Source: Trueperaceae bacterium (GTDB lineage: Bacteria > Deinococcota > Deinococci > Deinococcales > Trueperaceae). From it: a stretch of DNA of 64,000 nucleotides. The stretch is from contig JAXHLW010000013.1 of the NCBI GenBank assembly GCA_034521815.1, forward strand, positions 960,001 to 1,024,000, written 5' to 3'. Within the stretch, counting starts at the first letter, position 1, and each line of letters opens with the position of its first letter. The notes below the pieces were generated by a model. It was not told the origin of the DNA. It did no database searches and worked only from the letters and a program-made list of their open reading frames with translations. A program made the translations under genes and the position numbers. Of the stretch, positions 9,074-11,799 are shown piece after piece.

Positions 9074-9301
9074 GGTGTCTCCTCTTCGAAATGGGGTGTG
9101 AGAGGTGCGCGGAGAACGCCGTCACGAAGGGCGTGAGCAAGGACCCGCAACACCGCGGCACGCCTTGCGACGTGGTCGTCGGCACGGCTCAGGCGCGGCG
9201 CACCTCCGGACGCCACCGCCCACGATGTCGTGAAGCTGGCACATCACCAAGGGCCATTCGTCCGTGGCCCGGCGCGGCTCCGGCGAAGACCGTGCGACTT
9301 A

Positions 9302-9307
9302 TATGTT
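9302..9307 (+). promoter_or_regulatory. -10 hexamer TATGTT of the circle-junction promoter
   Basis: Lies exactly 17 nt from TTGACA (10451-10456) when the ends are joined through one CT core. Confidence 0.75.
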
Positions 9308-9313
9308 GGTGGC

Positions 9314-9472
9314 GGGGACGCACGTGATAGGCCGAGAGCGACTGGGTGCTTGACACCGAGACTGAGCAGGGGTCGTCACGTGAAGGTCCTCCGGGCGGAG
9401 CTCGAACGGTTGCGTGAGGACCCGAGAGGTACCTCGAATCCATAAGACCGAGCGGGACCCGGAGGACACCCC
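9314..9472 (+). ncRNA. Predicted bridge RNA (target-binding loop 9321-9382, donor-binding loop 9386-9467); ends approximate
   Basis: Two stem/internal-loop/hairpin units; four guide segments match the target and donor half-sites of this element. Confidence 0.85.
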
Positions 9473-9496
9473 AAGTCTATCTGGAGGTACGTTCAC

Positions 9497-10447
9497 GTGA
9501 ACGACACGCTGTTCATCGGCATCGACGTCAGCAAGAGCACACTCGACATCGCCATCCTCCCCACCGCAGAGGTCTTCGAAGTCCCCAACGACGCCGAGGG
9601 GCACGTCCGCCTCATCGAGCGCCTCGAGACCGAAGGACCGATCGAACGGATCGTCCTGGAGGCCACCGGCGGCTACGAACGCGCCTGCGCGTTCGCGCTG
9701 TTCACCGCCGATCTGCCCGTCGTCGTCGTCAACCCGCGCCAGACCCGCGACTACGCCCGCGCCACTGGCCGTCTGGCGAAGACGGATCGGATCGACGCAA
9801 TCTCCCTCGCGCAGTTCGCGAAAGCCGTGAAACCCGAACTGCGGGACCTGGGCACACCAGAACGGCAGGAGCTCGCAGCCCTCGTCGCCAGGCGCCGGCA
9901 ACTCGTCAGCATGATCGGCAGCGAGCGGCAGCGCCTCCAGGCCGCCACCAGCGACGTCGTACGAGCCGATCTGGATCACAGCCTGGCGTTCCTCAAAGGC
10001 AGCCTCACAGAGCTCGAGAAGGCCCTCCTCGTGGCTGTGAACGACGACCCGGAGTGGCGGGAGCGCATGGAGCTGCTCGAAAGCGTGCCCGGTATCGGGC
10101 GCATCACCGCCCTCACCCTCCTCGCCGAACTGCCCGAACTCGGGACGCTGTCCGCCAAGGAAATCGCCGCGCTCGTCGGGGTCGCACCCATGAACCGTGA
10201 CAGCGGCAAGAATCGCGGCTACCGGCGCACCATCGGTGGTCGCGCTCGCGTCCGCAAAGTCCTGTACATGGCCGCACTCACCGCCGCCCGCTACAACCCC
10301 ACCCTCCATGCGTTCTACGAACGCCTCCGAGCCGCAGGCAAACACGGCAAGGTCGCCCTCACCGCCGTAATGCGCAAACTCCTCGTCACCCTCAACGCCA
10401 TGATCAAGACCAACCAAGCCTGGCAACCACAACCGACCAGCGACTAA
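9497..10447 (+). CDS. IS110 family transposase / bridge recombinase, 316 aa, intact
   Basis: [23 protein letters not shown] (DEDD); SVPGIG; RDSGK with the conserved Ser; GGAGG RBS. Confidence 0.97.
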
Positions 10448-10450
10448 CCC

Positions 10451-10456
10451 TTGACA
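10451..10456 (+). promoter_or_regulatory. -35 hexamer TTGACA in the IS110 right end
   Basis: Perfect consensus, 3 nt after the transposase stop codon. Confidence 0.75.
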
Positions 10457-10470
10457 ATCAACACGGTTGC

Positions 10471-11799
10471 TCAGTCGAACGCCGCCGCCGCCGGGACGCG
10501 CGCCGGCGTGTTGCACGGCATCCCCTCCTCGAACAGGGCACGCTCGTCCTCCGGCAGGCGTGCGCGCGCGAGGTCGCGAATGCCGTTCACGCCGATGAAG
10601 AACTCGCGCATCATCACGACCAGCAGGTAGCGCCCCGTCTCGGTCAGCTCCAGCGCCTCCGCGTCGTCGCGCGAGAACGCGCCGGCGGCCTTCAGGAACA
10701 GGTACTCCGCCCACAGCGCACGCTCGACCGGGGCGCCGTTGCGCTTGGCGAACGCGCTCTTGTCCAGTCGGAGCCCGAACAGGTCCATCATCAGCCGGTA
10801 GCGCCGCCGATCGGCGCGACTCAGCGGCATGTGGGCGTCCACGCTGAGACGGCCCTCGTCGATCGCGCCGGCGTAGGCCCGCAGGCTGAACGGGTTCGCG
10901 TACAGCTCGTCGTTCAGGTAGCTGAACGAGCCGCTGCCCACGCCGACGTACTCGTCGTGGTCCACGATGTACTCGTCGATCATCGTCGACGCCTCGCGCG
11001 AGAACGCCCAGGCCGACGTCGGCTTGAACGTGTCCGACAAGGCCTCCGACAACAGCCGGTACTGGCGCTCCTCCTGTTGGTAGTCGACCGTGCCCAGCGC
11101 TCGCTCGAGCGGCTTCTCGACCGACGGCGACACCATCAGCGGGTAGTACGTCACCTGATCCGCGCCGGTCGCCTTGAGCGACTCGATGTCGCGCTTCAGG
11201 ACGTCGTCGGTCAGCGAGGGAAGGTTGAAGATCATGTCGACGTTGAGCGTGGTGAGCCGGCCCGCGGCCAGCTCGACCCCGGCCAGGATCTCCTCCGCCG
11301 TTCCGTACGCGTCCCGGCGCTTCATCTGACGCAGCAGCTCGTCGTCCAGGCTCTGCACCCCGACCGAGAGCCGGTCCACGCGTCCGTCGAGCACGTCGAG
11401 AACCTCGTGGGTCAGGTGGTTCGGGTTCGTCTCGGTCGACACCTCGCCCACGCCGAACAGCTCGCGGGCCAGGTCGATCGTCGCGACGAGCTCCTCCGGG
11501 ATCACGGTCGGCGTGCCGCCCCCGATGTACATCGAGGAGAAGTCGTAGCCCAGGTCGGCCACCATCCGCATCTCCTCACGAAGCGCGTGGAAGTAGCGGG
11601 TCGCCGCGTCCTGCTGGAACGGAAAGCGGTTGAACGAGCAGTACGGGCAGAGCCGATGGCAGAACGGGACGTGCGCGTACAGCAGATAGCCACCGCGATG
11701 GGTCGGCTTCGGGAGATCGCCCGGCTTGTGGGGCTCCAAGCGAAGCTGCTGCGACCGTAGGCCACGAAGGCGGCGGGTGAGGAGTCGCTCCGCGATCAT
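10471..11799 (-). CDS. HemN-like class C radical SAM enzyme, probable menaquinone methyltransferase (MenK-like)
   Basis: HVPFCHRLCPYCSFNRFPF, GGGTPT, ETNPNHL, QVTYYPLM, MMREFFIGVN; resembles MenK/MqnK as I recall them. Confidence 0.75.
   Translation of the reverse strand: MIAERLLTRRLRGLRSQQLRLEPHKPGDLPKPTHRGGYLLYAHVPFCHRLCPYCSFNRFPFQQDAATRYFHALREEMRMVADLGYDFSSMYIGGGTPTVIPEELVATIDLARELFGVGEVSTETNPNHLTHEVLDVLDGRVDRLSVGVQSLDDELLRQMKRRDAYGTAEEILAGVELAAGRLTTLNVDMIFNLPSLTDDVLKRDIESLKATGADQVTYYPLMVSPSVEKPLERALGTVDYQQEERQYRLLSEALSDTFKPTSAWAFSREASTMIDEYIVDHDEYVGVGSGSFSYLNDELYANPFSLRAYAGAIDEGRLSVDAHMPLSRADRRRYRLMMDLFGLRLDKSAFAKRNGAPVERALWAEYLFLKAAGAFSRDDAEALELTETGRYLLVVMMREFFIGVNGIRDLARARLPEDERALFEEGMPCNTPARVPAAAAFD

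Follow-up and report, generated by a model that had tools for sequence, protein, structure and literature searches.

Among described insertion sequences (ISs) of the IS110 group, IS621 of Escherichia coli (PDB 8wt6) combines a two-domain recombinase bearing DEDD and serine catalytic residues with a CT core, a long RNA-bearing left end and a short right end (PMC11208160; PMC11208158). Its bridge RNA carries, in two loops, a left and a right target guide (LTG and RTG) and a left and a right donor guide (LDG and RDG) together with handshake positions, and its promoter is split across the circle junction, with the -35 hexamer in the right end (PMC11208160; PMC11208158). Elements of the IS1111 group share the recombinase family and the RNA-guided principle, with short left and long right ends (PMC11208160). 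By 2024, IS110 bridge RNAs had been predicted in thousands of orthologues (PMC11208160), and the element described here is thus a further example of a known system. It occupies positions 9300-10471 on the forward strand of the window, by which we mean the whole 64,000-nucleotide stretch of Trueperaceae DNA that was analysed, and its features are best explained, with high confidence, as those of a structurally intact, IS621-like IS of the IS110 group whose RNA-guided cycle is read by analogy with IS621.

The IS621 traits listed above recur at this locus, the bridge RNA and the split promoter as predictions and the handshake in part. The two elements differ in host (here a member of the Deinococcota), in GC content (65% here), in the RTG, which in this element comprises seven contiguous bases, and in the first donor-loop handshake base, which is unpaired here; moreover, compared with the IS621 consensus, there is no room for a 5' stem-loop ahead of the target loop (putative start at ~9314, first stem from 9321). 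The ends, 197 nt on the left and 24 nt on the right, reverse the IS1111 arrangement and place the element in the IS110 rather than the IS1111 group. A preliminary description, made from the sequence alone, had presumed a high-GC, probably Deinococcota host, which is borne out (GC 71.1% for the window and 65.1% for the element), and every coordinate and string that it gave for 9298-10476 (CT cores, flanks, joined donor, structural units and loop segments) was recovered exactly.

Boundaries, recombinase and integration site

The coding part of the element and the junctions that delimit it are as follows.

9291-9299, forward strand: left target (LT) CGTGCGA (9291-9297) and left CT core; homology to related elements ends exactly there
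9300-9304, forward strand: right donor (RD) TATAT, read from the sequence
9483-9487, forward strand: ribosome-binding site GGAGG, read from the sequence, 9 nt before the GTG start
9497-10447, forward strand: recombinase gene of 316 amino acids with a GTG start, an open reading frame containing two Pfam domains
10463-10476, forward strand: left donor (LD) ACGGTTG (10463-10469), right CT core (10470-10471) and right target (RT) CAGTC (10472-10476), read from the sequence

Counted with its right CT core, the element measures 1172 bp, and the two core copies lie at 9298-9299 and 10470-10471. Excision of 9300-10471 restores CGTGCGA-CT-CAGTC, and end-to-end joining yields ACGGTTG-CT-TATAT; the left end spans 9300-9496 and the right end 10448-10471. 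The occupied site thus has CT on both sides, the empty sites described below have a single CT, and no terminal inverted repeat joining both termini was present among the 25 longest of 58 inverted pairs, a combination characteristic of IS110. Across homologues, left ends (n=29) align from CT-T[GA]TA onwards and are unrelated upstream of it, while right ends stop at TTGAC-N14-CT.

The recombinase contains PF01548 (DEDD_Tnp_IS110, RuvC-like; 5.1e-23, 82 bits against a cut-off of 29) and PF02371 (Transposase_20; 9.4e-23, 80.8 bits against a cut-off of 21.3). Its residues 5-305 align by phmmer with the ISCro4 transposase (PDB 9t56), the best solved relative in this protein-only comparison (E 5.1e-43), and over the same span with the distant IS621 sequence (E 1.7e-42). 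Counted along the 8wt6 alignment, D10, E55, D97, D100 and S236-G237 correspond to IS621 D11, E60, D102, D105 and S241-G242; the roles of D11, E60, D102, D105 and S241 are described in PMC11208158. The Pfam pair and the alignment to both solved recombinases support the IS110 identity proposed at the outset. As to the accompanying claim of an intact RNA-guided recombinase, the open reading frame and the five catalytic residues stand, whereas RNA guidance and candidacy as a tool are inferred from sequence.

Relatives of the recombinase at E<=1e-30 occur in 75 of the 364 species genomes of the phylum, which belong to a single order; the closest, L006 (genome G252) and L022 (genome G333), share 62% and 61% of amino acids, respectively, and no relative closer than 62% was found in the 364 genomes. 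Multi-copy families are present in genomes G116, G359, G114, G010 and G032. The left- and right-end architecture of these Deinococcota homologues aligns base for base with that of the present element, and a covariance model of the left end (R1, see below) finds the RNA beside the gene. They differ in their guides and targets, mostly carry CTTGT rather than CTTAT at the core and RD, and many have right ends of 100-300 nt. None of 10 same-genus genomes holds a relative of the recombinase at E<=1e-30, and a protein search of genome contigs returned one distant match, in Streptomyces (27%, residues 192-303).

By both DNA search and RNA-model search, the element is present as a single copy in its own 2.63-Mb, 83.5%-complete assembly. 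The same 2.63 Mb contain no second exact GCGACTCAGTC and 32 sites with one mismatch, compared with 44 for a reversed control; the absence of a second exact target is consistent with the single copy. The integration site is intergenic and lies directly beyond the stop codon that ends a radical-SAM gene (10471-11814, minus strand): T10471-C-A on the minus strand forms that stop codon, and the gene remains intact after insertion.

Empty sites were recovered from two sources. At the orthologous site in seven same-genus genomes, none of eight loci carries an insert, and in three of the eight GCGACT is directly joined to CAGTCGAA (GCGA-CT-CAGTC); the CT-CA of these sites is the radical-SAM stop codon, which insertion preserves. 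Additionally, in metagenome contigs of three runs, X1 (sediment) and X6 and X7 (stromatolite, possibly a single data set), exactly 1172 bases are absent (9297 to 10470, with 2 ambiguous letters), which leaves an empty site with a single CT.

On the other side of the insertion, downstream on the minus strand, lies a CMD-family gene (8747-9073, minus strand; PF02627, 1.1e-11), followed by a candidate small thioredoxin-like gene (~8499-8735, minus strand), judged from the look of its C-terminal translation. Situated between the radical-SAM gene and this pair, the IS could exert a polar effect on the latter.

Predicted bridge RNA structure, guides and handshake positions

Within the left end, two structural units with their guide and handshake segments are read as follows.

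9313-9470, forward strand: predicted bridge RNA, target-loop unit followed by donor-loop unit; covariance model R1, 117.6 bits, E 2e-27
9321-9382, forward strand: target-binding unit, with stem 9321-9328/9375-9382 (CACGTGAT/GTCACGTG), stem 9330-9333/9371-9374 (GGCC/GGTC) and apical hairpin 9345-9348/9354-9357 (GGTG/CACC)
9335-9343, forward strand: LTG AGAGCGACT, in the sense of LT plus core and pairing with the bottom strand; 7/9 here
9360-9366, forward strand: RTG GACTGAG, exact reverse complement of CTCAGTC, 7/7
9367-9368, forward strand: target-loop handshake guide CA, complementary to donor positions 6-7 (TG, 10468-10469)
9386-9467, forward strand: donor-binding unit, with basal stem 9386-9395/9458-9467, stem 9400-9404/9449-9453 (GCTCG/CGAGC) and apical hairpin 9416-9419/9432-9435
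9406-9413, forward strand: LDG ACGGTTGC, in the sense of LD plus core C; equals 10463-10470, 8 contiguous bases
9442-9446, forward strand: RDG ATAAG, reverse complement of CTTAT, 5 contiguous bases
9447-9448, forward strand: donor-loop handshake guide AC; A9447 faces A at target position 7 (mismatch), and C pairs with G6

Folding of the 197-nt left end reproduced both stem-loop units in the centroid and in the minimum free energy structure, and the comparison with homologues supports the fold. When the originally proposed structure was placed on a MAFFT alignment of 27 left ends, 78.3% of cells were paired, compared with 65.5% in shuffled alignments and 29-44% with slid partners, and compensatory cells numbered 154 against 56 in the shuffles; none of 500 shuffles reached the observed values. 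Helices 1, 2, 4 and 5 are 87-95% paired (95.3%, 89.8%, 87.4% and 94.4%, respectively), with both-side changes at 11 of the 12 pairs of helix 1 and compensatory changes in four of the five helices. The covariance-model alignment of 36 sequences gives the same structural picture. A possible terminal 5-bp stem, GGGAC/GUCCC in most sequences and GGG/CCC in this one (GGG(G) at ~9315, CCC(C) at ~9470), has weak support, at 81.4% versus 72.9%. Run on the raw alignment, RNAalifold found just helix 1, a single hairpin and the pairing of RD with RDG.

Further evidence concerns the relation of the loops to DNA that lies outside the element. For the guide test, 50 loci were processed for boundaries, yielding 39 elements with both flanks and 28 distinct target loops; the 11 loci dropped lacked a left motif (L021, L024, L042, L043), lacked a right motif within 700 nt (L022, L030, L047, L048, L050) or had a left flank cut by a contig end (L017, L023). 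Each left end was scored by its best ungapped match to LT plus core and to the complement of core plus RT. Across the 28 loops, the element's own left target matched at a mean of 6.89/9 and those of other elements at 5.01, while own right targets matched at 6.57/7 and others' at 4.23; for LT and for RT alike, 0 of 20000 permutations reached the observed own-target sum.

Resolved by position in model-aligned columns, the signal falls where the guides had been placed. The five variable positions of the RTG are Watson-Crick paired at frequencies of 0.89-0.96 with own flanks and 0.24-0.47 with others', LT4-LT7 at 0.71-0.96 versus 0.24-0.46, and LD3-5 at 0.96-1.0 with own ends versus 0.46-0.54. Furthermore, RD position 4 and the RDG covary: an A or G in the former meets a U or C in the latter, as GC in 22 of 27 elements and as AU in 5 of 27. 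Many different guide/target pairs are represented among these related homologues. The individual matches first reported (LTG 7/9, RTG 7/7, and those of LDG and RDG) are accordingly present as claimed, the LTG/RTG/LDG/RDG layout is supported by the guide-flank matching, the per-position tables and the RD/RDG covariation, and guides do covary with insertion sites among homologues.

A natural variant points the same way. In a contig from X6/X7, a copy showing 78 differences over 1181 bases (93% identical) lies at another locus, with foreign sequence on both sides; A9361C turns its RTG into GCCTGAG and its right flank reads CTCAGGC, so that guide and target have changed together. A similar copy in an X1 contig differs again in its left flank, and all three contexts share GCGA-CT on the left.

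Handshake positions behave in a comparable manner at the first base. In the target loop, position 1 follows LD7: AGC accompanies G, AGT in L017 accompanies A, and AGA in L034 accompanies T. The first handshake base of the donor loop forms a Watson-Crick pair with LT7 in 26 of 28 elements, compared with a fraction of 0.37 when loops and targets of different elements are combined. No covariation is seen at position 2 (0.39 versus 0.35, and 0.11 versus 0.18). The same handshake covariation has been reported for IS621 relatives, for which the handshake is described as a modulator of efficiency rather than a family-defining trait (PMC11208158). The preliminary description had called the bridge RNA fully readable; this holds for all four guides, but not for donor-loop handshake base A9447, which cannot pair with target position 7.

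The reading of an IS621-like element is therefore carried by its observed anatomy, catalytic residues, exact boundaries and empty site, by structural covariation, and by the covariation of guides and handshake with flanks and ends. Several observations weigh against it. The motifs used to set the boundaries of homologues take in the core and part of the RD; the homologues are kin, so the permutation figures overstate independence; LTG positions 1-3 give no clear signal in the covariance-model columns; and the LTG of this element mismatches LT1 and LT3, while the core T faces G and is left unmatched by the LDG (8/9). The pair A9447/A7 is the sole true mismatch at its position among the 28 elements, the other exception being G facing T in L044. 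As regards structure, the folding energy of the left end is ordinary (z = -1.15; equalled or bettered by 21 of 200 shuffles), which means that a single sequence proves little by itself, and the 10-bp basal donor stem is paired in 42% of cells per column and in 50% after realignment to model R1; tested sequence by sequence, a basal donor-stem duplex of <= -8 kcal/mol occurs in 33 of 36, with a shifting register.

Could the matches between loops and flanks be chance in GC-rich sequence? They are short (5-9 nt), and the fold is energetically no better than shuffles. Against this, identical loop positions fit the differing flanks of each homologue in turn, a result that none of the 20000 permutations reproduced, and the own LT and own RT of the present element each rank first of 28 against its loops. 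The permutation test and the 28-element ranking led us to reject chance, whose probability is close to negligible.

Predicted circle-junction promoter, mobility and a truncated copy

Two further segments acquire meaning when the ends of the element are joined.

9302-9307, forward strand: predicted -10 hexamer TATGTT, 17 nt after TTGACA once the ends join; the same or a close variant in homologues
10451-10456, forward strand: predicted -35 hexamer TTGACA, within the 24-nt right end

In silico, the predicted sigma-70 promoter TTGACA-17-TATGTT exists across the circle junction only. Where the element is integrated, the hexamers at the equivalent upstream place agree at 1-2 of 6 positions, and a consensus scan found no sigma-70-like site on either strand of 9100-10700. 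A circle junction appeared in none of the metagenome contigs, a kind of sequence that would hardly reveal one. IS621 has the same split arrangement (PMC11208160). Because TTGAC 14 nt before CT was used to place right ends, its conservation there is partly by construction.

By analogy with IS621 at every step, the following cycle is proposed. The element would leave as a circle, and joining of the right to the left end would create the sigma-70 promoter, from which a bridge RNA of ~160 nt (~9314-9470) and then, by read-through, the recombinase would be transcribed. The first internal loop would carry LTG (9335-9343) and RTG (9360-9366) for the target, the second loop, with LDG (9406-9413) and RDG (9442-9446), would pair with the joined ends ACGGTTG-CT-TATAT, and a tetramer of the DEDD/Ser recombinase would swap strands at the CT core.

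The window also contains a damaged copy. A tandem repeat of 11-13 kb units with 96-98% identity spans 1753-14552 and 14612-26044; unit 2 lacks the IS body 9351-10471 and has ~15 bp in place of ~230 bp (6672-6900). Either a genuine duplication or the merging of two strains by the assembler could account for the repeat.

21910-21960, forward strand: element remnant in unit 2, comprising element bases 1-51 (4 differences in 51) at the same left junction and followed directly by CAGTC

The remnant lacks bases 9351-10471. Its right deletion end coincides exactly with the right CT core, its inner endpoint is the CT at 9349-9350 in the target-loop hairpin, and the junction falls within GG[G/T]TG-CT, a string shared by 9344-9350 and 10465-10471. 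In a further metagenome run, X3, one contig has the same remnant join (9346 to 10468, skipping 1121 bases, with 4 ambiguous letters). An independent insertion at 21910-21960 is rejected, given that the flanks belong to the second unit of the tandem repeat, which copies the 11-13 kb unit in full at 96-98% identity; so is an origin from the LTG-coding CT at 9342-9343, a perfect self-target half-site, as the junction lies 7 nt further on.

Tentatively, and with somewhat less than even confidence, the remnant may be a product of the bridge recombinase itself, arising by recombination in cis between the right junction ACGGTTG-CT-CAGTC and the target-loop pseudo-site CTGGGTG-CT-TGACA. Among internal CT sites, the pseudo-site with core 9349-9350 is the best match to the left donor, tied (2/62), and this, together with a right endpoint at the core, makes a pseudo-site reaction by the recombinase plausible. 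Half-match recombination has been reported for IS621 (bioRxiv 10.64898/2026.08.31.748434). On the other hand, the right half resembles the RD in just one base beyond the core, and slippage at the 6/7 microhomology could give the same remnant. If the recombinase route is true, off-register, half-matched recombination would do away with the element, of which a guide fragment without a promoter would be left.

Model R1 gave 25 matches in five genomes, and the three without a listed neighbouring recombinase match were examined. One of them, L069 (G359:C6:714974-715122, minus strand), comprises a full-length predicted bridge RNA and left end and has no recombinase gene in the nearest 3.2 kb; another, L071 (G032:C10:498976-499093), is a left-end fragment that ends after the target loop. 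Should the recombinase route be both true and general, IS110 self-deletion would have left its footprints in solo left ends, among them the orphan RNA of G359 and the half RNA of G032. At 3689-3827 of L024, a second, weak R1 match (25.6 bits) lies beside a second, 30%-identical IS110-type gene, a sequence arrangement that indicates two different, adjacent IS110 elements.

These findings bear on whether the element is genuine but stranded, with an intact frame yet impaired in function, for instance through the handshake mismatch, and with no target left in its genome. Pointing towards immobility are the single copy, the lack of relatives in the 10 same-genus genomes and of a second exact target in the assembly, the A9447/LT7 pair as the only true mismatch among 28 elements, the failure to find a promoter in the integrated state, and the duplicated locus, which shows one copy to have been lost from the lineage already. 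Pointing away from it are the open reading frame, the full set of catalytic residues and the four readable guides, as well as the 93% copy at other loci in other metagenomes, which indicates that the lineage has moved. As to the mismatch, IS621 variants G166C and G166U, which do not pair, still allow recombination, which is blocked only by pairing with the cognate donor (PMC11208158), and A9447 does not pair with donor G7 either; with non-pairing handshake bases tolerated in IS621, the A9447 mismatch would by analogy be a possible loss of efficiency rather than inactivation. On balance, a stranded copy is unlikely, though worth keeping in view, and a structurally intact element with an RNA-guided cycle remains the preferred reading.

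An apparently antisense Rfam family and the significance of the element

In the region 9000-10800, the only Rfam match is RF02234 (sX15), on the minus strand (9306-9472), with 48.4 bits and E 1.9e-6. The score lies below the gathering score of 55 and the strand is opposite to the recombinase gene, so that the left end is not a member of sX15 as modelled; over its full length, the model nevertheless aligns with the complement of the left end. On the Xanthomonas plasmid pXCV183 (L068, 1879-2037), sX15 (plus strand, 150.9 bits) and the bridge-RNA model (minus strand, 57.1 bits, E 5e-14) share 150 bases, and no IS110 gene was found beside sX15 on this plasmid. According to PMC3300014, sX15 is a small RNA of the Xanthomonadaceae with an unknown role, a complementary partner, asX7, and 10 Stenotrophomonas homologues. 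With both models on the same pXCV183 bases in opposite orientation, RF02234 appears, at the level of sequence models, to describe the antisense of an IS110-type bridge RNA, and asX7 to be the sense strand. A full-text search returned no paper pairing sX15 with IS110.

The same match raises the question of whether the left end might, rather than encode a guide RNA, serve to regulate transposase expression, as an ordinary structured 5' leader or as an sX15/asX7-like sense/antisense small-RNA locus. The sole Rfam match being sX15 would fit such a locus, as would the report that both strands of the sX15 locus yield stable RNAs in Xanthomonas (PMC3300014) and the third CACGTGA copy of the left end, which lies over the GTG start and could pair with stem strand 9376-9387. 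Covariation of loop positions with DNA outside the element, however, is unexpected for a leader or an antisense regulator, the sX15 match falls short of the Rfam threshold, the minus strand yielded no promoter-like site, and antisense transcription would in any case be compatible with guide function. A purely regulatory left end is therefore very improbable, and a bridge RNA remains the preferred interpretation. As an observation in its own right, this third occurrence of CACGTG, a palindrome of the target-loop stem, makes 9489-9500 complementary at 11 of 12 positions to the 3' strand of the target stem (9376-9387), and such pairing could, judging from these bases, occlude the GTG start in a read-through transcript.

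The known mechanism is left unchanged by these results. What the locus adds is a compact (1172 bp), high-GC predicted bridge recombinase from a phylum, the Deinococcota, that a word search did not find named in the main text of PMC11208160, together with a natural record of unusual completeness: the site as occupied, its empty counterparts in sister genomes and environmental contigs, a close variant in which guide and target have changed together, and 28 relatives from which every guide and handshake position can be read. These properties make it a well-annotated candidate for orthologue screens with a natural guide-swap control, while the core-ending deletion and an Rfam family that appears to be antisense to the bridge RNA provide small, testable leads.

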